This document shows positions 2,676 to 32,000 of a stretch of DNA of 32,000 nt, one piece after another. A program made the translations under genes and the position numbers. The stretch is from Xylella taiwanensis (GTDB taxonomy: Bacteria > Pseudomonadota > Gammaproteobacteria > Xanthomonadales > Xanthomonadaceae): the NCBI RefSeq assembly GCF_013177435.1, contig NZ_CP053627.1, positions 2,790,001 to 2,822,000 on the forward strand, written 5' to 3'. Position 1 is the stretch's first letter; the number at the start of each line of letters is the position of its first letter. The notes below the pieces were generated by a model. That model saw only the letters and a program-made list of their open reading frames with translations. It did not search any database and was not told the DNA's origin.

Positions 2676-4583
2676 TCACACCACTTGTTCTGCCTGCAAA
2701 CGCTCAATGAAGGCGGAAACCGACATCGCCCCCAAATCCTCTCTTGAACACGTGCTTACAGCAACAGTGCCATTCTCCTTTTCGCGGTCACCAACCACCA
2801 ACAGGTAAGGGACGCGTTGCAGTGTATGCTCGCGAATCTTATAGCCGATTTTCTCATTCCGCAAATCGGCGTTGACCCGGAAACCTTGATTTAAAAGGGC
2901 TTTGTGGACCTGCTCTACGTATTCATACTGAGCATCGGTGATATTAGCGATGACTGCTTGGACAGGCGCCAGCCAAGTAGGCCAAACCCCAGCGTAGTGT
3001 TCAATCAGGATACCAATGAAGCGCTCCATCGAACCCACAATTGCTCGGTGCAGCATGACGGGATGGCGACGCTGACTACGCTCATCTACGTACTCGGCAC
3101 CAAGGCGACCAGGCATCATAAAATCAACCTGCATCGTGCCCAACTGCCAAGTGCGCCCAATCGCATCTTTCAGATGATATTCAATCTTCGGACCGTAGAA
3201 CGCTCCCTCACCAGGTAGCTCCTGCCACTCCACTCCACACGCATTCAAGGCAGCACGCAACGCAGCCTCTGCTTTGTCCCAATTCAGGGAATCTCCTAGG
3301 CGCTTGTCTGGACGCAACGCAATTTTGATCTGGATGTCCTCGAAACCAAAGTCGGCATAGACCTTCAACGCTTGGCGATGAAACGCAGTGACCTCAGCTT
3401 CGATCTGTGCCTCGGTACAGAATATGTGGCCATCATCTTGGGTGAAGCCACGCACACGTAAAAGGCCATGCAAGGCACCAGACGGTTCATTGCGATGGCA
3501 AGCGCCGAACTCACCATAGCGGATCGGTAGGTCACGATAGCTATGTAAGCCCTGATTGAAAACTTGAATATGGCCAGGACAATTCATCGGTTTAACCGCG
3601 TAAGTACGCTTCTCCGAATCAGTAAAAAACATGTTCTCCTTGTAATTGTCCCAGTGACCAGACTTTTGCCACAACGACACATCCAAGATTTGCGGGCAAC
3701 GTACCTCACCATAGCCGTTGTTACGATAGACATGACGCATGTACTTCTCGATCGTCTGCCAGATCACCCAACCTTTCGGATGCCAAAATACCAAGCCTGG
3801 CCCTTCTTCCTGGAGGTGGAATAAATCTTGCGTTTTACCAATCTTGCGGTGATCTCGCTTTTCAGCATCCTGTAAACGTTGAATATGAGCACCAAGCTGC
3901 TTCTTGTCGCCCCAGGCAGTGCCATAGATGCGCTGCAACTGCTCGTTCTTAGTGTCACCACGCCAGTAAGCACCAGAAATACGTGTTAGCTTGAAAGCTT
4001 TCAAGAAACGAGTATTCGGCACGTGCGGGCCACGGCACATATCCACATATTCTTGGTGATAGTACAGAGCCATCACAGTGACCTCCGTACCCATCTCTTC
4101 GATGAGGCGCAGCTTGTAGTGCTCACCACGCTCCTTGAACAAGCGCACGACATCATCACGTGGAGTGATGCACTTGACTACATCGTAGTCCTGGGCGATT
4201 AATTCAACCATGCGCTGCTCAATCGCAGCCAAATCTTCAAGCGTGAACGGACGCTCGGAGTAAATATCATAGTAAAAGCCCTCAGCAATCACTGGACCGA
4301 TGACCATCTTGGCCTCTGGATACAACTGCTTAACCGCATGGCCAACCAGGTGAGCACAAGAGTGACGGATGATTTCCAGAGCTTCCTGATCTTCAGGAGT
4401 GATGATACGCAGGGTAGCGTCATGCTCAATGAGATCGCTAGCATCCACTAAACGATCCCCATCAATCTGCCCGGCAATGGTGGCCTTGGCCAAACCTGCG
4501 CCGATCGAATGGGCAATCTGTATGACGCTAACGGGACCTTCAAATTCGCGGAGACTTCCATCGGGGAGCGTAATCGTGATCAT
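2676..4583 (-). CDS. thrS: Threonine--tRNA ligase
   Basis: ORF 2676..4637 (-). I chose the start at [10 protein letters not shown] (ATG at 4583), giving 635 aa. It has a TGS-domain N-terminus, class II core motifs ([28 protein letters not shown]) and an anticodon-binding C-terminus. Confidence 0.95.
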
Positions 4584-5750
4584 GAGTGTAAAAGCGTGTA
4601 CGCAGTTGATATTTTGAGTATTGATGCGCCCTGCCAAGCAGGGTCAAGCACCGATGGTAATGGCAACGCATCAAGGCAAACATCCAGCGGTGCAATCTTG
4701 AGTTTTCTACTACTTGACGAAAAAAGCGCCGCAATGACGCCTTGCTCATTCACCAAGACCTCAGTCAAGACTTAGGGGATTGGTAATGGCAGCACTCATA
4801 ACTACATGCACCAGGGTGGCAGCCTTCGTAGATTAATAAAACCCCCAGCATGTTAAATCAAATCCAGGCAGATTGCGCAGCCGAAGTCTGAGACCTCGAA
4901 ATTTCTAAAATCACCATTTCATCCCCTGAAGCATCCTTCAAAGCTAGTGGTACTAATGGTATTAAGAGGCAGTGCATAACGAAAAATATTGAAAATTTTT
5001 AGGCTGTCGGCACAATGTGCTTAAAGTATCTCTGCCATTCTCGGCACGCTCATTCAGCAATCTATTTTGATTGAGGACTAGCACCAGATCGGCCTAAGCC
5101 ATCAGTACAGTAGAAATCCTTATGGACTAGTCTCAATTTAGCCAAAACAATAACAATTAAGTGGCAGCTCTCAAGTGAATAAGCATTAGCAAAGAATCGC
5201 AAGCAACTTTACTGACTACGCTTGGATAATGACACGATACTGAACAATCATTTAAGTTTGGGCATCATAACCATCAATGAAGCACTCGGGATAGATTTAC
5301 AGCTGGTGATCCCAGTGTGATAGCCAACATCACTACTTTATGACAAGCAACAAATTACCGCGCGATGACACAACCTAATCGTTATTCAGCTGAGCCCGTA
5401 AACAAGACCAACACGCACACCTCTTCCGTAGTGCTAACCCCGGACTGTTACTGATCGAAGCCCTAGGTAATCCACTTCTTTTGAACAGATGCGCCACTAA
5501 CATATCCCCCCTCGGAAACAAGACATATGATAGACAGGGATGACGTACTCTCGTTTTAGTCAAGTCGGAATCAGTTGTAAGGGCGGCAGCGTAAGCAACC
5601 AAAGGAACCTCATAGAAGTAAGATGACAGAGGACCATACCCTCAGAAAGTGAGGTGATGCTATATACCAACCCTTATTAACCTTTTCTTCACTCATCTAC
5701 ATGAGATGGCCACCATACTAGCCTCGATTCAGAGGTAACCTATATCCCCT

Positions 5751-6035
5751 ATGCGTGCACCCGTCTTCCTGCAATCTAACCATTTCCGGTACCTGTTTGA
5801 ACCACGCAAACCCCGCCATCCGCTAGCGCGACTGGCCGCAAGCACAGCAGGTCTTACAATCCTGATAGCTTTGGTGTTCTTCGGTGTGTTCGTTGGCGTG
5901 GCGATGCTTCTTGGGGGAATCACCTGGAAGCTGTTGGTAGGTCGGCGTCGGCGTACTCAGGCTGCAGTTGGCACAAATCCCGTCGAAGGGAAGTATTGCG
6001 TAATCCGCAAGCCTGATGTGCCCCTGTCACGTTAA
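5751..6035 (+). CDS. Hypothetical small membrane protein (94 aa); uncertain
   Basis: This is the only clean ORF in the gene-poor stretch. It has one strong hydrophobic helix (GLTILIALVFFGVFVGVAMLLGGITW) followed by a basic patch (RRRR). There is no convincing RBS and I recognise no homology. Confidence 0.3.
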   Translation: MRAPVFLQSNHFRYLFEPRKPRHPLARLAASTAGLTILIALVFFGVFVGVAMLLGGITWKLLVGRRRRTQAAVGTNPVEGKYCVIRKPDVPLSR

Positions 6036-6920
6036 CCTTCCACTTTTACCCAACGCTGTTCTCGGAGTCAGTTGGAACAATGTGTGATTTTTCATCATTG
6101 ATTTGGTCTTCAGGCCGATGTTTAGTCAGAGTTCAACGTGGGCAGGAGCAGTTATTTTGCATCTAGGGTCTTTAGTTATAGCGCCCATGCTATTAAACCT
6201 TTTGTGATGCCCACGTATAAAATCAAGGCGAGATTTCTCCTTCAGCCATCGTACACGTTCTAGTAACCAATTTCGGCTTTGCAAGCCCCTGTATCTAACC
6301 TATGGGCTGCAACTTCATCCCACTTCGCCATGAGGTGGTTGATTGTAAGCCAACCTAAACAAGAATCAGCATAACCAACCAATAGTTTTTTATGAAACTC
6401 GCTGTAATCACAATGGTCGAATGAAGCAATAACATTGGCTCCAACACCTATTAGCTTTACCACGTGATCCAACCAGCATGGATATGCTCCGATCACGCCA
6501 CAAACGGTGTAGCAGTCATGAGCTTTAAGCCCGCTCCGAGCTAGTAGATGAGAATGACCATACGTCGCGCTGTCTCCGAAAGACGTATCCGATTAAAGAA
6601 TGAGTAGATACAGAAACGCACTTATCCCAAGAAAAGTGATGCTAAACGCATTGCGTTGGATGACAAGCCATTACTGCTCACCAACACTCCACTATGGAAA
6701 ACTGTCTTTTATCATCTGCAACGTTGGCTATCGGGACGCTTGTCAAAATTACACGCTCGATCCTACGCACTCCACCTTTAGATTGATGAACCACCTCAGG
6801 AGATCTAGCCCAACGCGACCAGTGACTACCCAACACCTTGGTAAGCATTGATTTCGTCCTCTTCTCATTCCTGATCTCAGCAACGCAGAAACTTCCCTCA
6901 ATACATTCGTAAGACACTGT

Positions 6921-7655
6921 AAGCCCTGCTCGCACGATTACAAGCCATTCGCGCAAATACATGACATCGAACTCTTCGTATTTGAAGCAGATGCGACAAT
7001 AGCCCTTGAACCTGTGAAACAGGCATTCGACCTCATTGTGGCGCTTGTACATTTTGCGGTCATATGCTCAAGGCTCACTAGGTATGCGCAGCGGTGGCAT
7101 GACGGGGATGAAACCCAACTCAAGGCGTTAATGAACGGGCCTGGGTAACCTTCGTCGACATGGTCCATGAGCACGTGCAACGAGTGATCTGGTGAACCGA
7201 GCCGCTCGAGCAACAGCCACTCGCGCAAACTTGCGGCACATCGTGCGCTTGTACAGACTATTGTCCGTTACGGGAAAGTAGTTCTTGATGTTCCACGCAC
7301 CAAGAAATTTGCCGATAATCAACGGACCGTTTTTTGAGGTGCACTAGTGCCATCCGGATGCACCTTCACACTAACTGCGCTCCAGCAACACAGTCTGAAA
7401 CTTGATTTGTACGACCGATGCTTGCTGGAGTGACTCGAAGACTCGATCCAACGCACCAGACTTCGCCCATTAGTTCATGCATGTGCAGATCGTATACCAG
7501 TGGCAGAAGCCTTTGGACAAGCCACGCCATTTGTAGCTGTACTCAACGAGATACCGTATGACGTTGAGCACTTGCAGATTTGTCGAACTTACGTTGCCGT
7601 GTTGCTTCGGCAAACAGTATTCGACCTGCTCGAATGAGGCTGCTGCGATCTCCAT
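6921..7655 (-). pseudogene. IS5-family (IS427-like, DDE) transposase remnant, broken by frameshifts and stops
   Basis: Transposase-like pieces are spread over three frames on the minus strand.
- N-terminal: FEQVEYCLPK..LQVLNVIRYLVEYSYKWRGLSKGFCHWYTICTCMN*W (compare W..IEPLLP...VLNAILYVLRTGCQWR.LP..FGPW.TVY..F.RW).
- Middle: VKVHPDGTSA..K.GP.IIGK (compare V.VHPDGTGA.KKNGPQ.IGKSRGG).
- C-terminal: YKRHNEVECLFHRFKGYCRICFKYEEFDVMYL (compare YKRRN.VERLF.RLKG.RRI.TR..KLDVMFL).
At least three in-frame stops or frame changes are present. Confidence 0.6.
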
Positions 7656-8324
7656 CGCTCACCGCAGCAGGGAAAGCGTCTCAGAACCATTCGTGTTCAC
7701 AGACCCCAATTAGCGGCCGACTCTTAGATCCATAAAAAAATGATGTCAAACTGAAATGACAGCAAGCAGCTAGCACGATCCTATCCTACTTGCATTTAGG
7801 GATGTGCAACCTGTCACTCATACAAATCGTCACCTTCAGCAAGGCGATTTCAAGCACTGACATGCATACCCCTTAACAGATAGTCTTCACAGCGAAGATT
7901 TTCGGGTAGTTCTGTGCCGCTTCAGAAGCAGTTAAGAACACTGGGGCAGATCTCAAACCATCACCATAGTTAATCACCTCAAACAACAGATGTTACTTAA
8001 TAATGTGATATACACGCCTCCCCATAGATACGTTCATGCTTTCAATGCCCTTGGCAAGACACAACACTGGCACAGGGTCTTTATTCCTGAACCTCAATTG
8101 CAATGGATTGATATCAAAACATACTCTATATATCGCTTACTTGCCTGTGGAGCGCGGCATTATATAATTCCAAAAAAATCCGTCGATTTATCTAAAAATA
8201 TTATTAAAAATCAAAAAGATGGAAACAATCTCCTGTACCCATCACCCGTTGTACTTTTCCACGCATCCAGGCTCGGTAGGGTGTTTTGCATTCACGCCAT
8301 GCAAGATGCATTCGGTGCAACACG

Positions 8325-9206
8325 ATGAAGCTGGCCATTCTCTCCCGAAACAGCAAGCTTTATTCCACTCGACGTTTAGTCGAAGCGGCACGTATGCGTG
8401 GTCATACTGTTCGTATTCTTGATCCGTTGCGATGCTACATGCGGATCGTCGTTGGAGACTTCCGCATGCACTACAAGGGAAAGCCAATAGACGGCTATCA
8501 CGCAGTAATTCCACGTATTGGTGTATCGGCCACACGCTACGCTACTGCGGTACTACGTCAATTCGAACTGATGGGCACCTACACTCCCAATCCCTCGGAC
8601 GCAATTCTGCGCTCACGAGACAAGCTACGCGCACATCAGCTGTTAGCCGCCCAGGGCATCGACATGCCGATTACTGTGTTCGGCGACAATCCAGACGACA
8701 CCCAAGACCTACTCTCAATGCTCGGTCCGCCCCCCCATGTGGTAAAGCTTAACGAGGGTACACAGGGTACAGGGGTGATCCTATCCGAAAAGACCAATAC
8801 CTCACGCGGTTTGGTAGAGGCACTACGTGGGCTATATGCCAATTTTCTGGTGCAAGAGTTTATCGGCGAGGCTGACAGTACAGACCTACGCTGTTTCGTA
8901 GTCGGCAACCAAGTCGTAGCAGCGATGCGCCGGCAAGCGGCGGAGGGTGACTTTCGTTCTAACCTGCATCTAGGCGGGATTGCAACTGCTGCCACTGCCA
9001 ATGATGAAGAACAAGAGGTGGCAGTACGTTCAGCACGCGCGCTTGGACTAACCGTGGCTGGGGTAGATCTCATCCGTTCACGACGTGGACCGCTGGTGCT
9101 TGAGGTCAATCCCACACCCGGGTTAGAAGGCATCGAAGCGACTTCCGGTGCCAACGTTGCCACACAGATCGTACGCCATGTTGAGGATATGCTGGCTAAT
9201 ATCTGA
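8325..9206 (+). CDS. rimK: ATP-grasp ribosomal protein S6 glutamate ligase (RimK family)
   Basis: ORF 8286..9206 (+). I chose the start at [18 protein letters not shown] (ATG at 8325), giving 293 aa. ATP-grasp signatures are present ([48 protein letters not shown]). Confidence 0.9.
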
Positions 9207-13682: not shown

Positions 13683-14945
13683 TTATCCAACTACAGAAGC
13701 AAGCTTGAAGATCGGCAAATACATAGCAATGACCATGCCGCCGACGATAACACCAATAAAAACCATGATCAGCGGTTCCAACAAGCTGCTGAGCCCGTCC
13801 ACCGCGTTACCGACTTCCTGTTCGTAGTATTCGGCAACTTTAAATAGCATTGCATCCAGAGCGCCTGCTTCCTCACCAATGGCAGTCATCTGCACCACCA
13901 TATGGGGGAATAAACCAACTTGCCTCATTGCCATATTTATCGCATAGCCAACAGAGACATCATCACGCATCCGTAGCACGGCATCCGCGTAGACCTTATT
14001 GCCGGTTGCACCAGCAACAATACCCAATGCCTCTACCAGTGGCACACCTGCACGGAAAGTAACGGCTGTCGTTCGCGAGAAACGAGCAAGTGCGCTGTTA
14101 TGCATGATCCTCCCGATTATTGGGAACCGCAACACCAACCTATCTAGCATGTGCTGCATGTACACCGAGCGCTTGTAAGTAAAGATGGCACCACCGATAA
14201 CAACAATCAGCAACACCAGCATGACCCACCACCACTGCTGCATGAATTTGGAAATATTGACGATCATCTGAGTGAATGCGGGCAACTCCGCTCCGAATCC
14301 TTTGAACACATCCTCAAACTGCGGCACCACATATACCAACAAGACCGAACTGACAATGAGAGCAACCGAGACGACAGCAGCAGGATAGAACAACGCCTTA
14401 CGGATTTTACTCTTCAGAGCCTCGATGTTCTCCTTATAACTGGCAATCGTATCGAGCACCGTCTCCAGCACACCCGCACGCTCACCCGCCCTGACCAGAT
14501 TGCGATACAGCTCATCGAAATGCACCGGATGCTTGCTGATTGCCTCGTACAGTGAGGAACCACCTTCAATATCATTTTTAATTTGGTTGACCATCGTACG
14601 CATACGCGGATTCTTCTGGCCGTTCACCAGGATATCCAACGCTCCGACAATAGGGACCCCAGCTTTCATCATCGTTGCCATCTGGCGACTAAAAAAGGCA
14701 ATGTCCTTTGCAGTAATCCGCCTGCCTGCTTGACCAAACAGCGGCTTGGGCTTGGGTCTGACCACATGAGGGGTGATGCCTTGGCGACGTAGCTCAGCAC
14801 GCAACAGACTCGCCGTACGTGCCGTCTGTTCTCCCTTGATCTTGATACCACGCTTGTCAGTTCCTTCCCAAAGGAAGGAGGTCAACGGCGTGCTGGGACT
14901 CCCAGCACGCGAGGCATTTACAGCAGTACGTGTTGCAAAGATCAA
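13683..14945 (-). CDS. pilC: Type IV pilus inner-membrane platform protein (GspF/PilC family)
   Basis: The maximal ORF is 13683..15011 (442 aa). The sequence is PilC-like (FLWEGTDKRGIKIKGE..., two GspF repeats, C-terminal LPIFKL). The ATG at 15011 lacks an RBS. The TTG at 14943-14945 follows GGGAGA by 6 nt and gives a 420-aa product, so I prefer it; the start is uncertain. Confidence 0.9.
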   Translation of the reverse strand: MIFATRTAVNASRAGSPSTPLTSFLWEGTDKRGIKIKGEQTARTASLLRAELRRQGITPHVVRPKPKPLFGQAGRRITAKDIAFFSRQMATMMKAGVPIVGALDILVNGQKNPRMRTMVNQIKNDIEGGSSLYEAISKHPVHFDELYRNLVRAGERAGVLETVLDTIASYKENIEALKSKIRKALFYPAAVVSVALIVSSVLLVYVVPQFEDVFKGFGAELPAFTQMIVNISKFMQQWWWVMLVLLIVVIGGAIFTYKRSVYMQHMLDRLVLRFPIIGRIMHNSALARFSRTTAVTFRAGVPLVEALGIVAGATGNKVYADAVLRMRDDVSVGYAINMAMRQVGLFPHMVVQMTAIGEEAGALDAMLFKVAEYYEQEVGNAVDGLSSLLEPLIMVFIGVIVGGMVIAMYLPIFKLASVVG

Positions 14946-15325
14946 CTCTGTTCTCCCATCCACCGTCCCCAAGCGGACCGATGACGCATGGTAGCTGGTT
15001 CTTGAAAACATGGCAGCAAAATCTGGAAACTCCTGATCAATAGCTCCATTTACGTTCTTAATTAAAATGCCCAGCTTTTAGGAAGTGACGCTAAATGACA
15101 CATATTGACCATTTACGTCCCCTCGAATAACGGATCGCAATTCTTAAAAAAATGCCTGCCAAAATTTATTCATTCAGGCATCATCCTTTCGGAATGAAGT
15201 GTATTGTTTTATCGGAATCTAGTTCGTATTTCCAGTTTAAATAACAGCGCCGCAATAAACGGCTGCCTATGAGTTTTCTTCATCCATACGCTTAATCAGT
15301 AACCGAACTTATTAAAGGTATACAC

Positions 15326-15781
15326 ATGAAAAAGCAACAAGGTTTTAACTTGATCGAACTGATGATCGTGATTGCGATCATTGCCATCCTGGCGGCCATT
15401 GCTCTGCCCATGTACCAGAATTATGTCGCCAGGGCTCAAGTCACGGCGGCACTGGCCGAGATTACGCCAGGCAGAGCACAAGCCGAAGTCCGTATTACTG
15501 ATGGAGTAGCTGCAACCAATCTTCCGAACGATATCGGTCTGCGCAACACCACCTCTCGTTGCGGCATTACCGTCACTATCGATCCCGCTAAAACAAGTAC
15601 AATCGTATGCACGATTATTGGCAATGCTCAGGTCAACGGTCAAACCATCACGTTGACTCGTACCCCCGATACAGCTGGAGGCAATGCTACTGGGGGTGTG
15701 TGGACTTGCACCACTAGCGTTGCTGCCGCGTTGAGACCAGCAGGCTGTACTGCTCCTGCTACTACTAGTACTGGTACTTAA
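15326..15781 (+). CDS. pilA: Type IVa pilin, pilC-proximal paralog (151 aa)
   Basis: Class III signal MKKQQG|[29 protein letters not shown] with Gly-1, Phe+1 and Glu+5. It has four Cys (two predicted disulfides) and a Ser/Thr-rich tail, [11 protein letters not shown]. The RBS is AAAGG and the gene is divergent from pilC. Confidence 0.93.
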
Positions 15782-18420: not shown

Positions 18421-18480
18421 AACCCATCTTTTCAATACTGGACAAAATGTTCATTAACGCTAACAAAGGAAGGATTCATC

Positions 18481-19023
18481 ATGAAACAGCAGGAAGGTTT
18501 TACTTTGATCGAACTGATGATCGTGATGGCGATCATTGCCATCCTGGCCACCATCGCTCTGCCCATGTACCAACATTACGTCGCCAAATCTCAAGTCACG
18601 GCGGCACTGGCCGACATCACACCAGGCAAGACACAAACCGAGGCACGTATTGCCAATGGAATGCCGCGCACCATGCTTCCCAATGATCTTGATCTGCGTG
18701 CCACCACGACTCATTGCCATCACATTGATGTCATTGTCGATTCAACGAACACCTGGTTCAGAACCTGGGATTCGTTAAACCCTCGTCATTCCAGTTCCAG
18801 AATCACTTGTACGATTCATGGCAATGCTCAGGTCAACAATAAAATCATCGAATGGATGCGTCTCCCCGAAGTTCCGGACTTCTCTATTGAGGGCGGCCTC
18901 TTTGATGACAATGACAATAATTTGAATGGGCAATGGTTCTGCCTCACCAACGTTGACAAAGCATTGAGACCCCCAGGCTGTGAGGACTCTTTACCCAGGA
19001 TCTGGACGCCCCAGGGCTCGTGA
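18481..19023 (+). CDS. Type IVa pilin, divergent and longer paralog (180 aa)
   Basis: ORF 18403..19023. The true start is ATG at 18481 after AAGGAAGGA. The leader reads MKQQEG|[29 protein letters not shown]. It has four Cys and extra segments relative to the other paralogs ([19 protein letters not shown]; [23 protein letters not shown]). Confidence 0.88.
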
Positions 19024-19226: not shown

Positions 19227-19703
19227 ATGAAAAAGCAGGAAGGTTTTACTTTGATCGAGCTGATGATCGTGATTGCGATCATTGCCATCCTGGCCGCTAT
19301 CGCTCTGCCCATGTACCAGAATTATGTCGCCAGATCTCAAGTCGCGACGGCACTGGCCGACATCACACCAGGCAAGGTCCAAGCAGAGATTCTTTTTACT
19401 GACGCAAGGGGAACATCAGCCATCACTACTCCGGAAACTATCGGTCTGCGTACCTCTAGTACTCGTTGCAGTACCATTGGTGTCAATATCACGCCAAGCA
19501 CTGGCATTGGCGAAATAGCATGTACGATTATTGGCAATGCTCAGGTCAACGGTCAAACTATTAGATGGAATCGTAGCGCCGATAACGCCTCAGGCCAAGG
19601 TGGCACTAATAATGGTGGCTTGTGGAGCTGCACCACAAACGTTGCCGCAACGTTGAGCCCAACAACCTGCACTGTTACTGCCGCTGCTGCTGGTTCTAAG
19701 TAA
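19227..19703 (+). CDS. pilA: Type IVa pilin, pilB-proximal intact paralog (158 aa)
   Basis: MKKQEG|[29 protein letters not shown]. It has four Cys and the RBS AAGGA. A GC-rich terminator hairpin follows. Confidence 0.93.
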
Positions 19704-20075: not shown

Positions 20076-20450
20076 ATGCCGTCGATGTATAACCTGCACG
20101 GTCTCTCTTTCACCGGGGAAAGCATCAAAAAATCCGCTGGATTCAACTTGATCGCACCGCTGATTGTCATGGCGAACATGGCTCTCCTGACGGTTATCGG
20201 GTGCAGCCCTTATCAAACGTATATTGCCAAGATTCATATGGATGTCGCCCTGGCCAGCCTCCAAGCTGGAGAAACCACCACCGAGACTCTCATCCAGAAA
20301 CAGCAGCATGCCACCCCGATCGACGCGACGCATCCAGGTCCCCACACCACCCATTACGGCTCGTACGTTCAAGCACGCTTTGACAACACCGGTGCCGGTG
20401 CGATCATCTGCACACCCCCGGTAAACCGTTTTATCGATAATCTGACATGA
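20076..20450 (+). pseudogene. Decayed or atypical pilin-like ORF (124 aa)
   Basis: ...SIKKSAGFNLIAPLIVMANMALLTVIGCSPYQTYIAKIHMDVALASLQ aligns with the pilin N-termini ([46 protein letters not shown]). The ATG before KK is missing, Glu+5 is Ala, and the next Leu is Pro. The C-terminal disulfide pair is absent. The frame is kept open only by an ATG 21 codons upstream. Confidence 0.55.
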
Positions 20451-20565: not shown

Positions 20566-22299
20566 ATGAACGCAGCCCACTCCGCCAATCTTGTCGGCAT
20601 TACCGGTATCGCCCGTCGCCTGGTCCAGGATGGCAGCATTGAAGAAGCCACCGCACGCATCGCTCAAGATCAAGCAACGGCCGCCAAGGTACCTTTACCA
20701 CAGTGGTTGATCGATAAAAAACTGGTCAGTGCAGCAAAGTTGGCCGCCGCCAATGCACTTGAGTTCGGGATGCCGCTGCTGGATGTCTCTGCGTTCGACC
20801 CTAATCACAGTGCAATGAGTTTGATCAACGAAGATCTGCTGCTGAAGCATCAGGTGTTACCGTTATTTAAACGCGGCAATCGACTGTTCGTCGGAATCAG
20901 CAACCCAACCCAGACCCAGGCTCTGGACGACATCAAGTTCCACACCAATTTGGTCGTAGAGCCGATTCTGGTTGACGAAGACCAGATACGGCGTACGCTC
21001 GAACAATGGCAGTCCAGGAGCGGTGCGCTCAGCGCTGGATTGGCGGAGGATGACACCGGCATCGAAGGCTTGGACATCGCCGGCGGAGATGACGATGGGA
21101 TGAGCGGCGATGCCGGCGTCGATGCTAAGAGCGATGACACGCCGGTCGTCAAATTCGTCAACAAGGTGCTGATCGATGCCATCCGGCGCGGCGCATCGGA
21201 CATCCATTTTGAACCATACGAAGAGGATTACCGGGTCCGATTCCGGATCGATGGTCTGCTGAAGAGTGTGGCAAAGGCACCAAACAAGTTGAACCAGCGT
21301 ATCGCCGCACGTTTGAAAGTCATGTCGCAACTGGATATCGCGGAAAAGCGGGTCCCGCAAGACGGGCGTATCAAGCTCAATCTATCGAAAACCAAGCAGG
21401 TCGATTTCCGCGTCAGTACACTGCCAACGCTGTTCGGCGAGAAAGTCGTACTGCGTATCCTGGATGGCAGTGCGGCAAAGCTGGGTATCGACAAGCTCGG
21501 TTACGAGCCTGACCAACAGGCCCTCTTTCTGGAAGCGATCCACAGACCCTACGGAATGGTCTTGGTCACTGGTCCGACCGGTTCGGGTAAGACGGTATCG
21601 CTTTACACCGCACTAGGCATCCTCAACGACGAAACACGCAATATCTCCACAGCCGAGGATCCTGTAGAAATCCGGCTGCCTGGGGTCAATCAGGTACAAC
21701 AAAACAACAAGCGCGGCATGACGTTCGCTGCAGCGTTACGTTCGTTTCTGCGTCAGGATCCAGATGTCATCATGGTCGGCGAAATCCGGGATCTTGAAAC
21801 CGCTGAAATCGCCATCAAAGCCGCGCAAACCGGTCACATGGTGCTCTCCACATTGCATACCAATGATGCGCCGCAAACCATCGCGCGTCTCATGAACATG
21901 GGGATTGCGCCGTACAACATCACCTCGTCAGTGACATTGGTGATCGCACAGCGGTTGGCACGGCGGCTGTGCAATCAATGTAAGCGGCCGGTTCAATTGC
22001 CGGCGAATGCATTGCTGGCCGAAGGGTTCACGCAGGCGCAGATCGATGCAGGGCTCGAACTGTACGAACCCGTCGGTTGCGACGAATGCACCGAAGGCTA
22101 CAAAGGCCGCACAGGTATTTATCAAGTGATGCCAATTACGGACGGGATTGCTTCGATTGTTTTAACCGGCGGTAATGCGTTGCAAATCGCCGAGGAGGCG
22201 CGCCGCATCGGCATCCACGACCTGCGCCAGTCGGCACTGCTCAAAGTCGCTCAGGGCGTGACGGGATTGGCCGAAATCAACCGGGTCACCAAAGATTAG
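20566..22299 (+). CDS. pilB: Type IV pilus assembly (extension) ATPase
   Basis: 577 aa in the GspE/PilB family. It has Walker A (GPTGSGKT), an Asp box, Walker B (DPDVIMVGEIRD), a His box (GHMVLSTLHTND) and a tetracysteine motif (CNQC...CDEC). Confidence 0.95.
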   Translation: MNAAHSANLVGITGIARRLVQDGSIEEATARIAQDQATAAKVPLPQWLIDKKLVSAAKLAAANALEFGMPLLDVSAFDPNHSAMSLINEDLLLKHQVLPLFKRGNRLFVGISNPTQTQALDDIKFHTNLVVEPILVDEDQIRRTLEQWQSRSGALSAGLAEDDTGIEGLDIAGGDDDGMSGDAGVDAKSDDTPVVKFVNKVLIDAIRRGASDIHFEPYEEDYRVRFRIDGLLKSVAKAPNKLNQRIAARLKVMSQLDIAEKRVPQDGRIKLNLSKTKQVDFRVSTLPTLFGEKVVLRILDGSAAKLGIDKLGYEPDQQALFLEAIHRPYGMVLVTGPTGSGKTVSLYTALGILNDETRNISTAEDPVEIRLPGVNQVQQNNKRGMTFAAALRSFLRQDPDVIMVGEIRDLETAEIAIKAAQTGHMVLSTLHTNDAPQTIARLMNMGIAPYNITSSVTLVIAQRLARRLCNQCKRPVQLPANALLAEGFTQAQIDAGLELYEPVGCDECTEGYKGRTGIYQVMPITDGIASIVLTGGNALQIAEEARRIGIHDLRQSALLKVAQGVTGLAEINRVTKD

Positions 22300-25837: not shown

Positions 25838-27001
25838 ATGAATTTCCACGAATACCAGGCGAAACAACTGTTTGCCGAATACGGCATCCCTGTTCCGGCC
25901 GGACGCATCGCGTCTTCGGTCGATGAAGCGGTTAAGGCCGCCAAATCTTTAGGCGACGGCCCATGGATGGTCAAGGCTCAGATTCATACGGGCGGCCGTG
26001 CTAAGTCCGGCGGCGTGAAATTTTGCAAGACAACCGACGAGGTGAAACAGGCCGCCGCAGCAATGCTCGGTACCAAGATGGCGACTTACCAGTCAGCAGG
26101 TGTTGCTCTTCCGGTGAATCTGGTCTTGGTGACCGAAGCTGGTGAAATCGCTAAAGAACTCTATCTGTCGGTGTTAGTAGATCGTGGTACACGTTCGATC
26201 ACCTACATCGCATCATCCGAGGGCGGTGTGGATATTGAGCAGGTCGCCGCTGAAACTCCTGAAAAAATTCAAACGCTCAATGTCGACTTCGTGGAAGGCC
26301 TGCAGCCATACCAAGGGCGCGAAATTGGCTTCAACCTTGGCCTGGAGGCCAAACAAGTCAATCAGCTATCCAAAATCATGGTTGGCCTATATCAATTGTT
26401 CAACGACAGAGATTTGTCTTTGATCGAATTGAATCCATTAGCAATCCTGGGCAATGGCAACTTGTACGCACTGGATGGCAAAATCAACTCCGACGACAAC
26501 GCGACGTTCCGCCATAAAGAATTGGCCGCGATGCGCGACAAAACCCAGGAGGACGAAACCGAGGTTCTGGCTTCGGAGAGCGATCTGAACTACGTCACTA
26601 TGGATGGCAACATCGGCTGCATGGTCAACGGTGCCGGACTGGCCATGGCCACCATGGATGTGATCAAGCTCAATGGCGGCGAACCGGCAAATTTCCTTGA
26701 TGTAGGCGGCGGCGCTACCAAAGAGCGTGTGACCACCGCATTCAAACTGATCCTTTCCTCAAACAAGGTCAAAGCCATCTTTGTGAATATATTCGGTGGC
26801 ATTGTCCGCTGCGACATGATTGCCGAAGGCATCATCGCTGCAATCAAAGAAGTGGGTGTCAAGGTGCCTGTTATCGTACGCTTAGAAGGCACTAATGTGG
26901 ACGCTGGCAAACAACTGCTGGCCACATCCGGCCTAGCCATTATCCCAGCCGACGACATCAACGACGGCGCGAGGAAGGCCGTCGCCGCTGTTACCATCTG
27001 A
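25838..27001 (+). CDS. sucC: Succinate--CoA ligase (ADP-forming) beta subunit
   Basis: 387 aa, [20 protein letters not shown]...[12 protein letters not shown]...[18 protein letters not shown]. Confidence 0.97.
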
Positions 27002-27029
27002 ACCCACCGAGAACCTTTAGGAATTCAAC

Positions 27030-27902
27030 ATGTCTGTACTAGTTAATAAAAATACGAAGGTGATCGTGCAGGGCTTTACCGGTCAACAAGGGACCTTCCA
27101 TGCCACTCAGATGGTGGAATACGGCACTCAAGTCGTCGGTGGTGTCACCCCTGGCAAGGGAGGCAATACCCATATCGGTCTGCCGGTATTCAACACTGTG
27201 CGTGAAGCCGTCGAGAACACAGGTGCTGACGCCTCGGTTATCTACGTACCACCACCGTTTGCAGCCGATGCGATTTTGGAAGCAGCTTCGGCAGGCATCA
27301 AAGTCATCGTGGCTATTACAGAAGGTATTCCGGTACTGGACATGCTGCGAGTTAAAAATGTACTTAAAGCGTATCCTGAAACCACATTGATCGGACCAAA
27401 CTGCCCAGGTGTTATTACCCCAGGCGAATGTAAGATCGGGATCATGCCGGGCCATATCCACAAGCCAGGTCATATAGGTATTGTGTCGCGCTCTGGTACG
27501 TTGACTTACGAAGCTGTGAAACAAACTACTGACGTCGGCCTAGGTCAGTCAACCTGCATTGGTATCGGTGGCGATCCAATCAACGGTCTGAACTTCATTG
27601 ATGCGCTAAAGCTGTTCAACAACGATCCACAGACCAGGGGTATCATCATGGTGGGGGAGATCGGCGGGGATGCCGAAGAAGCCGGCGCTGAGTACATCCA
27701 ACAACATGTGAGCAAGCCAGTAGTTGGGTTTATCGCTGGTGCATCCGCACCGAAAGGCAAACGCATGGGCCATGCCGGTGCCATCGCTTCGGGGGGATCA
27801 GGGACAGCGGAAGGCAAGTTTACTGCGATGGAAAAAGCCGGCGTTAAGACTGTACGTTCACCAGGGGATTTGGGCGCGGCGATTGCTTTGTTGGTAAAGT
27901 AA
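27030..27902 (+). CDS. sucD: Succinate--CoA ligase alpha subunit
   Basis: 290 aa, [12 protein letters not shown]...[10 protein letters not shown]...[10 protein letters not shown]...MGHAGAI (active-site His). It starts 28 nt after sucC and has an AGGA RBS. Confidence 0.97.
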
Positions 27903-28161
27903 ACCACTCTGGAAAATTGCTTTCTCAAAGTTTTTCAAAAACATCCCAGTAGGTACAGCTTAAAACGGTTTAAGGTAAACGACGAGATCTCCGGAAACTC
28001 GGAGACCTAGTTGCTCTTGTCATATGCTGGCATTTAAGCATCTTCGATTTCCATCCCATCATCCAGGCACTACTTATCAGTGTAAAGTACACACGGAATA
28101 ATTACCGCACTTATACTCACCTATGCATTTATTATTAATAATGATCTCGATAGAATCCGAT

Positions 28162-29514
28162 TCACTTGCCAATACAGAAACTGGAAAAAATCCGCCCAAG
28201 TAGTTCATCAGGACTCATGCGCCCATTGATTTCACCCAGTGCGTGATAAGCCAAACGAAGTTCTTCTGCGGTCAATTCTAAATGTTCGTATGCGAACTGT
28301 GCATTGGCATCCACTACATGCGCAGCCGCACGTTGCAAAGCCTGCACATGGCGCAACCGTGCCGAAAATTCACCTTCGACCACTTCGGTCGCCTCGCCAA
28401 GCGCCAACGCACGCAGGCGTGCCTGCAATGTTTCCAGGCCAGCACCCGTCATTGCAGACACTGCGATCACATCTGACCCTAATGCAGGCGGCTCCGCAAG
28501 CAAGTCAAGTTTGTTATGGATCCAAAGTACACGCGGCACTGAAGTAAGAGCATCTATCACCGTAGCACGGCCAATCTGCGGATTGCAGGCATCCAACACC
28601 ACCAGTGCCAAGTCAGCACGCTGCAATTCGCTGAGGGTACGACGCATACCTTCGCGCTCAATTGCATCGCCCCCGTCACGTAACCCAGCAGTGTCAACCA
28701 AAACAAACTCCAAGCCATCGAAATGCACACTCTCACGCAATGTGTCACGAGTCGTACCGGCAACATCGGTTACGATCGCACGCTCACTACCAATCAAAGC
28801 ATTGAGTAGTGAACTTTTACCAACATTCGGAGGACCAACCAAAACGGTATATAGTCCATCGCAAAGACGCCTCCCATGCTCAGCCTCTCGAAGTAACTGT
28901 GTCAGTTCAACACACAAGGTCTGTAATGCAGTACGTATCTGGACACCATCAAATGTATCCAGCGATTCATCGGCAAAGTCGATTGCTGCTTCAACGTGAA
29001 TACGCAGCCTGACTAACTGTTCGGCTAATGCCTCGCAGCGCCGCGAAAAGACTCCATCCAGCGATCTGCGAGCAGCACGAGCAGCACGCAAGTCACCAGC
29101 ACCGATCAGATCGGCGATTGCCTCGGCTTGTATCAGATCAAATTTACCGTTGAGAAAGGCACGTTCACTAAATTCGCCGGGGCGGGCTTGCCGCGCTCCT
29201 AGCCTCACACATCGCATCAATAGCTGGCGTAGCAACAGCGGGCTGCCGTGCCCTTGCAACTCCAATACATCTTCGCCAGTGAAGCTATGTGGGGCAGGAA
29301 ACCATAGCGCCAACCCATCATCAATGGCTTCATCATCGATATCGAGAAAACGTGTGTAATGTGCATGTCGTGGCCGTAACGTGGCAATACCTAGACCACT
29401 TGCAATATTTTTTATCAATGGACCAGAAACGCGCACTATCCCTATTCCAGCACTACCGGACGCGGTGGCAATCGCAGCGATGGTGTCGTTCAAATAGGCT
29501 GGGCACTGGCTCAT
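28162..29514 (-). CDS. mnmE: tRNA uridine-5-carboxymethylaminomethyl modification GTPase
   Basis: 450 aa. The N-terminus reads [23 protein letters not shown]. The G-domain has [12 protein letters not shown] and DTAGLR. The C-terminus ends in the hallmark FCIGK. Confidence 0.95.
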
Positions 29515-31946
29515 AATTTCGTCAGCTTCATACGCACCTGTTTCGCACCAGAACCTTGTGGTTGAAGATCCAAGTAAATCGTATAAGCTTTTCGCGCTTT
29601 ATCTTTATTGTTTAATCGCAAATAGACATCACCAAGATTTAGCTGTGCGACCGCACGTGAGGGATCTATTTTGAGCGTGTTCTCCAACCACCGTACAGCT
29701 TGTGCGTATTGTCCCTGACGAAAATACACAAAACCAAGATTATTAGCCGCCAGTGCAAAGTTTGGACGCAACTCCAGCGCCTCGGAAAATTTATCAGCAG
29801 CTTCCATATAACGCTTCTCTTTGTATAACTGCAACCCCAGATCATTTGCACGCTGAGCTAGCTGCCTTTTACTAAGCTTCCCAGTAGGAAGCAATGACAA
29901 AGTGGCCTCGCTAGCTTGTAGATTTTTGACTGTGGCTGATCTAAGCACAGTCGCATTTTGACGTACCTGTTTAGCACCGAGTGTAGAGTTTGTGGACCCA
30001 ACACGACGGTTCAAAGTAATCTTATCGACTAGTAACTGTGCTGTCTGACTCGTCAGAACTCCCTCACGCCTGGGTATCTCGAACACAAATTCCCCCCCCT
30101 GTGAACCAGCCAAGTTACCGAATGTTGGGGTTTGTGCTGATACTGCCGACACCGCTGGCACCACGTATGCCGCCAATTCAGTACCAGTGATCAATCCGTC
30201 ATCATTAAAGTCAGCACGGCCAGACAACGCTTGCAATAACACCCAAGTGAAGACAGAATGGCCGTTGGGGCCTCTATCAGTGACTGGCTGGTCAGCCGCA
30301 CCAGCAGTGAGCATTTGACGACTCATTCGGTTATTACTCGTACGCCAGCGAGCACCAGTCTCTGTTTCCCCATGCGTGAAATCCAAACCGCTATAGCAAG
30401 CATCTATGACGAAGAGTACATTTTTAGCCTCAAAGTTCTTAGCGATGTTCTGTATTTCGGTCATTGAGATTGCATCATCTGCAAAATTCGCTGGATTCGA
30501 ATCAGCAGGAATGATATAATTCAAGTTTGGCCCGAAGGAGGGCCGACGTGTAGCGCCATGACCAGCAAAGAAGACAAACAGACGATCATTTTTTTGTATA
30601 CGACCATTAGCCAACTGACCGTTAAACGCAGCCAGAATTTTATCGCGAGTGGCCTCACGGTTCTTCAGTAAAATTACTTGTGAAGATGGAAAGCCAAGCG
30701 ATTCAATCAGCGTGTTGGCAATCGCATCAGCGTCGTTAGCTGCGTATTTCAATTTTGGCCACTTGATATAGTCATCGACACCAATCACTGTTGCCCAAGA
30801 ATGTATGGCGGTAGTTCCTCTCCCTGTATCATCGGTGTCGACCTTTATAGCTTGACTATGATTAACACTAAAGCCATGGCCATCCCAACCAGCAAATTGG
30901 TAGCCATCAGCGATAAGTTGATCCAGGATCTGTGGTAGTGCTTTAACTGCACGGTCATGAATATCGTGAAACAAAATGATGCCACGTTGTTTTTTAGCCA
31001 CCTGCGCGAGTACACGCCGCACGACTGAATTTGGAACTGGATCGGCCCAGTCAAGCGAATCGATATTCCATCCCACTGATTTAAGGCCGATTTCAGCTAG
31101 CAACCGCAGCCCCTCAGCATTACGCGCACCATACGGGAAGCGGAATAGTGGTGCGCGCCTTTCATCCACTGCACGCAACATTGTATCGGCATCCATCACC
31201 TCTCTACGAAGCGCTGTGCCACTAAGCTTAGACAACAGGTCATGGGTCATACTATGGTTACCAACGGCATAGCCTTGTTCCATTAGCTCGTGGCTAATTT
31301 TAGATAAGGGGCCTAGTCGCGGTTTTCCAGCCCTATCCAATCTGCCAAGATTGCGTCCAACCTCAAAGAACACCGCTGGTACAGCGTAGCGTTGTAAGAT
31401 TGCCTTGATTTCATTGGTATAGACTCGGTGTGGGCCATCATCGAAAGTAAGTACTAGCGTTTTAAACGGTAATTCATTACCAAACACTTCAAGTTCGCTT
31501 CCTTCGATTGATATCGGATCAGCTTCGATGACTGCATAATCACGCAAAATCATTTTACGTGTGTAAGAACGACGCAAATACGCCATGTAGTCATCCCACT
31601 TTTCACGCTTAAGAACAATTCCTCGATTGTGATCAAAAGAATTAGATATCCGAGTAATTTCCTGGTTGTAGGTATGTTCAATCTGAGTTAGTGCATCCAG
31701 ATCTTCATGAATACGTTGACGCAATTTTATTGCCGGAAGCGCCGAATCATGGCTAATACGAGCGTCAAGATCGTTTAGCGTTTCACGAAACGCTAAACGA
31801 TCAGCATCATAGAGCTCAGGTGCGGATTCAATATAATCGAGCATTATTGTCAAAGTATCAAAACGGTTAACCGCACCAGAAGTAAGCAATGTATCAATTC
31901 GTTTAGAAAACGCGGCGCGTTGATTCAATCCTTCATTAAATAACAT
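29511..31946 (-). CDS. Multidomain protein: NodB/CE4 polysaccharide deacetylase, caspase-like (peptidase C14) and TPR repeats
   Basis: At least 811 aa.
- **Deacetylase:** residues ~163-352 carry all five NodB motifs (TFDDG, HSMTH, RFPYG, DSLDWAD, ILFHD).
- **Protease:** residues ~384-625 carry a caspase-type His/Cys dyad (FFAGHG; VIDACYSG) and the [17 protein letters not shown] tail common in bacterial caspase homologs.
- **TPR:** residues ~695-800 form three TPR repeats.
The frame stays open upstream of the first ATG all the way to position 32000, so the true start may lie outside the window. The stop overlaps the mnmE start (ATGA). Confidence 0.85.
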
Positions 31947-32000
31947 CTGCCCAACTTGAGTCGAAGTAACACGCTCCCGAGACGTATGTACATCATCATC

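Follow-up and report, generated by a model that had tools for sequence, protein, structure and literature searches.

A stretch of 32,000 nucleotides from Xylella taiwanensis (assembly GCF_013177435.1, contig NZ_CP053627.1, positions 2,790,001 to 2,822,000), hereafter the window, was analyzed for a gene on its minus strand that joins a CE4 deacetylase, a caspase-like C14 protease and tetratricopeptide repeats (TPRs). By its sequence, this gene is the local ortholog of the 'Xanthomonas-type metacaspase', and the architecture is already known. The product was read as a periplasmic, envelope-directed bifunctional enzyme, exported as a lipoprotein in Xanthomonadaceae and most plausibly acting on peptidoglycan, with a probability of about 0.55. 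The original prediction, made from the letters of the window, had named no characterised member with this architecture; however, the architecture was described and named in 2012, and one member has weak published biochemistry.

Identity of the gene and published record

The Xanthomonas-type metacaspase was defined by Asplund-Samuelsson, Bergman and Larsson (2012, PLoS One; PMC3501461) as PF01522, then C14, then one to three TPRs, with carriers in Xanthomonas, Xylella, Stenotrophomonas and two Acidobacteria (Koribacter and Solibacter). The Cys-His dyad was intact in 17/17 of these proteins, the gene formed a conserved operon with trmE, and the predicted Xylella operon added rnpA and yidC (PMC3501461). 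The gene of the window agreed with this type in domain order, TPR count, Cys-His dyad, orthology and mnmE operon, and its product was 62-66% identical, at 100% coverage, to Xanthomonas and Stenotrophomonas proteins. Moreover, public annotations carry both enzymatic domains, either as 'polysaccharide deacetylase family protein' or, at JGI, as 'uncharacterized caspase-like protein/peptidoglycan/xylan/chitin deacetylase'.

An example of the same architecture, GI 88792532 from X. campestris pv. glycines, is the 'Xanthomonas caspase' (PMC3501461). As related in PMC3501461 from Gautam and Sharma (2002) and Raju et al. (2007), its product cross-reacts with antibodies against human caspase-3 and PARP, a DEVD-cleaving activity goes up during cell death in the nutrient-induced model of Gautam and Sharma, and the protein is reported to be processed from ~100 kDa to ~55 kDa. 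The later papers of the Sharma-laboratory cell-death line still speak of just a 'caspase-3-like protein'. No knockout or enzymology of a Xanthomonas-type metacaspase gene was found in the searchable literature, and the literature on the locus tags of this gene consisted, beyond the Sharma-laboratory papers, of one CAZy mention of XCC4239. GI 88792532 is probably XCC4239, a locus called a CE4 enzyme in a 2026 paper.

Domains and catalytic residues

Residues are numbered in the 829-residue frame inside the window, and subtracting 18 gives the 811-residue numbering of the original prediction. One uninterrupted open reading frame (ORF) contained Polysacc_deac_1 (PF01522, residues 176-308, E 2e-23) N-terminal to Peptidase_C14 (PF00656, residues 401-597, E 1e-19), followed at the C-terminus by TPR_1/TPR_2 in three stretches (residues ~720-816, E 1e-15 to 1e-16). 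All of these Pfam matches scored far over the curated cut-offs. The Pfam search that had been proposed as a check thus recovered all three families, and the three C-terminal TPRs named earlier were found both as the Pfam stretches and as seven helices in the AlphaFold2 (AF2) model.

In the case of the deacetylase, the five CE4 motifs (TFDDG, HSxxH, RxPYG, DSLDW and LxHDIH) aligned column for column with PgdA of S. pneumoniae (SpPgdA, 2c1g). In CE4 enzymes, MT1 provides the catalytic Asp and a metal-binding Asp, MT2 provides two metal-binding His, and MT5 provides the catalytic His. The matching SpPgdA residues are D275/D276, H326/H330, R364, D391/W392 and L415/H417. The motif set read from the letters (TFDDG, HSMTH, RFPYG, DSLDW and LFHD) was therefore complete and lay on the metal and catalytic residues of SpPgdA, and the aspartates given as D169/D170 in the 811-residue numbering were correct. 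In the case of the protease, the alignment with yeast metacaspase Yca1 (4f6o) paired AGHG with SGHG and DACYSG with DSCHSG, placing His and Cys on the Yca1 dyad. Both dyad motifs of the original prediction were present and its H463 was right, whereas the cysteine is C517 and not C516. A p10-like segment followed directly after the C14 catalytic region.

Conservation was determined from an alignment of 54 sequences from at least five phyla or classes. The invariant positions comprised the CE4 residues D187, D188, H249, H253, R287, P289, Y290, D314, W318, L343 and H345, the C14 dyad H481 and C535, and two S1-pocket aspartates, D423 ('AAND', matching 'CIND' of Yca1) and D533 ('DAC', matching 'DSC'). 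As all catalytic residues were invariant, a pseudoenzyme is unlikely. Arg/Lys-specific metacaspases have an acidic S1 pocket, formed by an Asp after strand 1 and an Asp two residues before the catalytic Cys. Since both S1-pocket aspartates align with those of Yca1 and never vary, the C14 domain is predicted to have basic P1 specificity (Arg/Lys) rather than a caspase-3-like DEVD specificity. In addition, an Arg-rich loop (residues 541-561) was observed after the catalytic Cys, with low AF2 confidence and with R558 and R561 invariant. Speculatively, this loop may be a candidate autoprocessing site, and autocleavage there could reconcile a ~100-kDa precursor with the reported 55-kDa species.

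Structure models and the N-terminal helical domain

The CE4, C14 and TPR domains were confidently modelled by AF2. The predicted local distance difference test score (pLDDT) exceeded 90 across most of residues 170-380, and the C-terminal seven helices corresponded to three TPRs and a cap, in agreement with the matching CTPR structures. In Foldseek, the CE4 domain was found to be a distorted (beta/alpha) barrel, with template-modelling scores (target) of 0.75-0.84 and a root-mean-square deviation (rmsd) of ~2 Å to several CE4 structures, among them PgdA, Bc1960, PdaC and Bd3279. The C14 domain matched AtMC9, MALT1 and GSU0716, each with a probability of 1.00. The linker (residues 646-708) had a counterpart at the same position in distant homologs (L013, P0315), where the sequence was coiled-coil-like.

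About 160 helical residues at the N-terminus had been left without an assignment, and the same result was obtained here. AF2 placed helices at residues 7-155, no Pfam match was obtained even at E up to 10, and a 20-sequence profile gave chance-level matches alone against the PDB (E of at least 0.1). In a sub-model of the helical and CE4 domains, with a pLDDT of 84.5 and a predicted template-modelling score (pTM) of 0.79, the helical domain packs against the CE4 domain. The Foldseek matches of this sub-model came via the CE4 domain only. The invariant residues of the helical domain include E58, D65, D67, F71, D100, Y111, E114, R126, R132, E133, W135 and Y138.

Truncation at the window edge and export signals

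The first ATG inside the window (31946) gives a protein of 811 residues, and the original prediction had taken this position as the N-terminus without recognizing a truncation. However, the reading frame was open, with 0 stops, up to base 32000. In the alignment, the homologs had I, Q or L at the position of this methionine, and their N-termini were ~75-90 residues longer. As the homologs lack a methionine there and extend further, the gene was concluded to be 5'-truncated by the window, and 31946 is not its true start. This comparison puts the genuine start, along with any export signal, past base 32000. The earlier statement that the part inside the window has no signal peptide was correct, solely because the N-terminus falls outside the window.

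Export was accordingly assessed from the homologs. Of 53 homologs, 50 have a lipobox, signal peptide or membrane anchor at the N-terminus, and the other 3 look N-terminally truncated. A lipobox pattern was found in 13 of the 53, and nearly all others have a hydrophobic signal or anchor. The lipoboxes occurred in Xanthomonadaceae and Myxococcota (LLAGC, VAGC, LVAC and VVAC), while in most members outside these two groups the N-terminus contains either a signal peptide of type I or a hydrophobic anchor. Since nearly all complete homologs sampled carry export signals, the family proteins are, judged by these N-termini, extracytoplasmic and lipoproteins in Xanthomonadaceae, and we infer a periplasmic location for the window copy. 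The suggestion of an envelope enzyme in the original prediction was thus right as to the compartment.

Distribution and closest relatives

The original prediction had proposed a survey of the phyletic distribution, and the domain order was found in Beta- and Gammaproteobacteria, Acidobacteria, Myxococcota and Methylomirabilis. Full-length members were 58-66% identical in Xanthomonas, Stenotrophomonas and Pseudoxanthomonas, and 45-55% identical in Gallionella, Rhodocyclaceae, Inhella, Burkholderiaceae, Uliginosibacterium and Acidiferrobacterales. Full-length members also occurred in Acidobacteria, Methylomirabilis and Myxococcus/Pyxidicoccus, the identity across other classes and phyla being ~40-55% over ~900 residues. 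The members were ~860-960 residues long, all with the same three Pfam domains. An exhaustive search of representatives at 50% identity gave ~25 near-full-length matches among the best 150, and a GTDB scan with exact query peptides gave relatives at up to 65% identity. Judged from these comparisons, the family is far wider than reported in 2012 and is among the most conserved bacterial metacaspase families.

The closest protein in a set of 5.8 billion sequences was P0001, which was 74% identical. It is encoded at 6001-8712 of locus L019 (GCA_050353435.1, contig JBNVQL010000023.1), and this locus was 82% identical in nucleotides to window 28166-32000. The GC content was 43% over the 10.9-kb L019 locus, compared with 50% for the whole window. 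P0001 begins with the lipobox LVAC followed by K. Its TPR region (cf. window 29514-29876) had many disruptive substitutions and was without a TPR score in the precomputed Pfam list, while CE4 and C14 were kept. In this AT-shifted relative, selection on the TPR module seems to have been relaxed.

Split forms and a reverse fusion

The three-domain protein was not the only arrangement of these modules. Complete stand-alone genes with signal, helical domain and CE4 domain (~420-460 residues) were found in P0303, P0300, P0330, P0269, P0280 and P0318, and stand-alone proteins with signal, C14, coiled coil and TPRs also exist (e.g. P0315). Moreover, the N-terminally truncated metagenomic protein P0292 (1031 residues) has the reverse order, C14-DUF4384-helical-Polysacc_deac_1. 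The helical domain was found without CE4 in none of the complete proteins among the matches examined. Since fusion has occurred in two independent orders, a joint function of the C14 protease and the helical-CE4 module is suggested by Rosetta-stone reasoning. This supports a real functional link between the two, and the deacetylase and protease activities may cooperate. The idea of a meaningful enzyme fusion in the original prediction was strengthened by the same two orders.

Two of the stand-alone contexts were of separate interest. In L021, a 624-residue Trypsin_2 protease gene (3059-4933) stands directly before the stand-alone helical-CE4 gene (5001-6386). In L028 (7475-11234), the stand-alone helical-CE4 gene lies near MurQ-like SIS, NagB, YdjC and GlcNAc-kinase-like genes. 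The first is a hint of pairing with proteases and the second of a tie to the recycling of amino sugars or peptidoglycan, each seen in one of six contexts and hence not general. A rule that a protease always stands beside the helical-CE4 gene was considered and rejected, as the Trypsin_2 neighbor occurred in 1/6 stand-alone contexts.

Proposed function and alternative explanations

On the preferred reading, a protein of ~900 residues would be exported over the inner membrane and, expressed constitutively, would help to maintain the envelope from the periplasm. Its CE4 module would de-N-acetylate (or de-O-acetylate) an envelope glycan, most plausibly the N-acetylglucosamine (GlcNAc) or N-acetylmuramic acid (MurNAc) of peptidoglycan, and the tethered protease would cleave, after Arg/Lys, some peptide or protein bound up with this substrate. 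Alternatively, the protease may act on its own polypeptide, at the Arg-rich loop that follows the catalytic Cys. After a flexible linker, the three TPRs would dock or position the enzyme on a partner. Peptidoglycan is proposed as the substrate by analogy. It is the most plausible choice because the nearest solved CE4 enzymes (Bd3279, PgdA, Bc1960 and PdaC) are peptidoglycan deacetylases, because exopolysaccharide genes were never linked in the contexts examined, and because peptidoglycan-binding and MurNAc-L-Ala amidase domains are repeatedly found fused to bacterial metacaspases (PMC3501461). A further step, in which protease and CE4 domain act jointly on one peptidoglycan unit, is suggested only tentatively. 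Peptide trimming might then accompany GlcNAc/MurNAc de-N-acetylation by a Gram-negative analog of the CwlD/PdaA logic, in which the helical domain would gate access of the substrate and the TPRs would dock the protein.

Several points weigh against the envelope reading. Neither the sequence nor the fold of a CE4 domain tells apart peptidoglycan, chitooligosaccharide, poly-N-acetylglucosamine (PNAG) and acetylxylan as substrates; the scores of acetylxylan esterases equaled those of PgdA, also in Foldseek, and chitin deacetylases came close. The signal peptide of the window copy itself is unseen, as its N-terminus lies beyond the window. The full-length AF2 model had a pTM of 0.44 with linkers below a pLDDT of 50, and its inter-domain geometry, including the orientation of the two active sites to each other, is unreliable. 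No conserved neighbor points to peptidoglycan; four stand-alone contexts were uninformative, and L028 and L021 are single cases. Finally, in the account given by PMC3501461, the Xanthomonas ortholog is credited with caspase-3-like and PARP-like activity in cell death.

This last point leads to an explanation in which the protein would act inside the cell like caspase-3 and execute programmed cell death induced by nutrients, with inherent PARP-like activity and activation by proteolytic processing from ~100 to ~55 kDa. The antibody cross-reactions and the rise in DEVD cleavage related in PMC3501461 speak for it, the idea has been kept in later papers, and the Arg-rich loop after the Cys could be the autoprocessing site. 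However, export signals throughout the family place the protein outside the cytoplasm, the invariant S1 aspartates resemble those of Arg/Lys metacaspases, the opposite of the Asp-specific caspase-3, and the fold of the deacetylase region is clearly that of CE4, with 0 PARP matches. Moreover, the support as presented in PMC3501461 consists of antibody cross-reaction and peptide-substrate assays, and the literature search turned up no genetic counterpart in the form of a knockout. An intracellular executioner was therefore judged quite improbable, although a periplasm-side role in autolysis is possible.

Exported CE4 enzymes such as PgaB, PelA and IcaB deacetylate secreted polymers, which gives some ground for an exopolysaccharide or biofilm-matrix enzyme. 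A PNAG-, Pel- or xanthan-like polymer would then be deacetylated by the CE4 domain on its way out of the cell. Attachment to the secretion apparatus would fall to the TPRs, as it does in PgaA/PelB/BcsC-type systems, and a protein of the matrix would be the target of the protease. The TPRs do weakly match PEP-CTERM PrsT, Tgl and PilW-type lipoproteins, and there were weak N-terminal matches to PgaB models (E 2e-5), but PgaB TIGR03938 gave 23 bits against a cut-off of 322, over 43 residues alone. With the profile below its cut-off and no pgaABCD-type operon, the protein does not fall among the PgaB-type PNAG deacetylases. Polysaccharide synthase or export genes were linked in 0 of ~25 contexts examined, with no pga-like neighbors, an identity of ~40-55% is kept across phyla with unrelated exopolysaccharides, and the gene is retained in the small AT-shifted relative L019. 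A matrix function was consequently considered unlikely. The analogy to conflict systems drawn in the original prediction, worked out here as a TPR-CHAT-like sensor-effector in which the TPRs would sense a signal and the caspase-like domain would fire, fared worse. TPRs with a clan-CD protease are a recurring immune architecture, and a PADLOC caspase model matched the C14 domain (E 9e-24); however, this match reflects the generic caspase fold only, the protease is C14 with no CHAT match in Pfam, and the NCBIfam model 'caspase_w_EACC1' scored 76 bits against a cut-off of 140. In addition, the protein is exported and in Xanthomonadales appears to be vertically conserved at a fixed housekeeping locus (yidC, mnmE), with no defence-island neighbors and no neighbor conserved outside Xanthomonadales. 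This explanation is thus largely refuted and highly improbable.

The S1 pocket and the export signals appear inconsistent with the published caspase-3-like and PARP-like functional claims. If the joint action on peptidoglycan is true, the long-cited 'caspase-3-like / PARP-like' protein of Xanthomonas would turn out to be an envelope enzyme given the wrong role, with any link to cell death arising via autolysis. Settling the function would show the role of an exported bacterial metacaspase and clean up a much-cited example of 'bacterial apoptosis'. In plant pathology, peptidoglycan deacetylation would bear on evading plant peptidoglycan perception and lysozyme-type defences. The interest that is left lies in the function of a very conserved exported metacaspase fusion, kept even in the AT-shifted L019.

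Gene neighborhood and other features of the window

The features of the gene and its neighbor are summarized in Table 1. The ATG of mnmE and the stop codon of the CE4-C14-TPR gene lie in a 4-nt overlap (ATGA), so that the two genes form one transcription unit with mnmE in the downstream position. In L019, the order was dnaA / rpmH-rnpA-yidC-gene-mnmE with the same 4-nt overlap. The synteny with yidC upstream and mnmE downstream was confined to Xanthomonadales; no conserved neighbor was found outside this order, and the betaproteobacterial and other contexts share nothing. ORF calling in the high-GC loci was crude, and antisense artefacts occurred in the neighborhood comparison. Stand-alone forms also lie beside housekeeping genes, for example directly after valS. 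Such housekeeping surroundings fit a gene for constitutive maintenance better than one from an accessory island, and in Xanthomonadales the gene appears to be vertically conserved at a fixed oriC-proximal housekeeping locus.

Table 1. Features of the CE4-C14-TPR gene and the downstream gene (positions in the window)
Feature	Position	Strand	Basis or remark
CE4-C14-TPR ORF, 5'-truncated	29511-32000	-	829 codons + stop 29511-29513
Helical domain, family-specific	31491-32000	-	residues 1-170; AF2 helices, invariant columns
CE4/NodB-homology deacetylase domain	30861-31487	-	residues 172-380; Pfam PF01522, SpPgdA 2c1g alignment, Foldseek
CE4 motif MT1 TFDDG	31434-31448	-	
CE4 motif MT2 HSMTH	31242-31256	-	
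CE4 motif MT3 RFPYG	31128-31142	-	
CE4 motif MT4 DSLDW	31047-31061	-	
CE4 motif MT5 LFHD	30963-30974	-	
Peptidase C14 domain (metacaspase/orthocaspase-like)	30066-30809	-	residues 398-645; PF00656, Yca1 4f6o alignment, Foldseek
AGHG with catalytic His481	30555-30566	-	
DACYSG with catalytic Cys535	30387-30404	-	
Low-confidence linker	29877-30065	-	residues 646-708; one helix predicted, pLDDT 28-51
Three TPRs + capping helix	29514-29876	-	residues 709-829; Pfam, seven helices pLDDT >90, CTPR structures match
mnmE/trmE (tRNA modification GTPase)	28162-29514	-	Pfam TrmE_N, MnmE_helical, MMR_HSR1

Some further observations were made in the window. The mnmE gene is convergent with sucCD (sucD end 27902, mnmE end 28162; window 25838-29514), and a pilS-pilR-pilB cluster stands directly before sucCD, so that the oriC-proximal yidC-gene-mnmE block adjoins the sucCD/pil region here. 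The L019 contig ends soon after mnmE, and the sucCD/pil junction was seen in the window only. Between pilC (13683-15011, minus strand) and pilB (20566-22299, plus strand), three intact type IVa pilin paralogs and a fourth, degenerate pilin-like ORF were found on the plus strand (15326-15781, ~18478-19023, 19227-19703 and 20076-20450). The intact pilins start with the canonical prepilin N-terminus M-K-K-Q-x-G-F-(T/N)-L-I-E-L-M-I-V. The first pilin is separated from the second by ~2.6 kb (15.8-18.4 kb) without an ORF of at least 100 residues. In the 3.6 kb between thrS and rimK (4640-8285), the longest ORF had 124 residues, and an ORF at 6678-7052 (minus strand) resembled, by eye, the C-terminal end of an IS5-type transposase; the segment looks like decayed or mobile-element-derived DNA. 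An Rfam scan of the whole window gave 0 matches.

Comparison with known systems

Compared with the Xanthomonas-type metacaspase, no architectural difference was found, the window copy being merely 5'-truncated by the window. Domain order, dyad, a size class of ~97-100 kDa and the downstream trmE/mnmE are in common, and Xylella is listed among the carriers. The description in PMC3501461 does not mention the export signals, the helical domain or the S1-pocket prediction, and it contains no members from Betaproteobacteria, Myxococcota or Methylomirabilis.

With the CE4 peptidoglycan deacetylases PgdA (S. pneumoniae, 2c1g), Bc1960 (B. cereus, 4l1g), PdaC (B. subtilis, 6h8l) and Bd3279 (Bdellovibrio, 5jp6), the NodB fold and the five motifs, with the Asp-His-His metal triad and the catalytic Asp and His, are shared, at 25-33% identity and an rmsd of ~2 Å over ~200 residues, and presumably so is the extracytoplasmic location. 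In contrast to the window protein, these enzymes are without a protease or TPR module, and none of their accessory domains is related to the helical domain; the N-terminal region of Bd3279 was not superposable (rmsd 14-15 Å over the whole chain). On the protease side, the caspase-hemoglobinase fold and the His-Cys dyad are shared with Yca1 (4f6o), Arabidopsis MC9 (9n3e), Geobacter GSU0716 (3bij) and the MALT1 paracaspase, and the S1 aspartates and the p10-like segment are shared with metacaspases. The sequence similarity to solved metacaspase structures is very low (E 0.008 to Yca1), and unlike these four proteins, the window protein is presumably exported and is fused to a carbohydrate esterase.

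TPR-CHAT (Csx29) likewise combines TPRs and a clan-CD cysteine protease in one polypeptide. However, the window protein has a C14 protease and a short C-terminal TPR region (3 repeats), is presumably exported, and has no CRISPR or defence context. The pair CwlD and PdaA of B. subtilis, which forms muramic delta-lactam, offers a conceptual parallel only, in that a peptide-removing hydrolase is followed by a CE4 enzyme on the same muramic acid. CwlD is an amidase and not a C14 protease, CwlD and PdaA are separate proteins, and there is no evidence of muramic lactam in the Gram-negative lineages that carry the family. PdaA/PdaB models were nevertheless among the best NCBIfam matches of the window protein, all of them below the cut-off.

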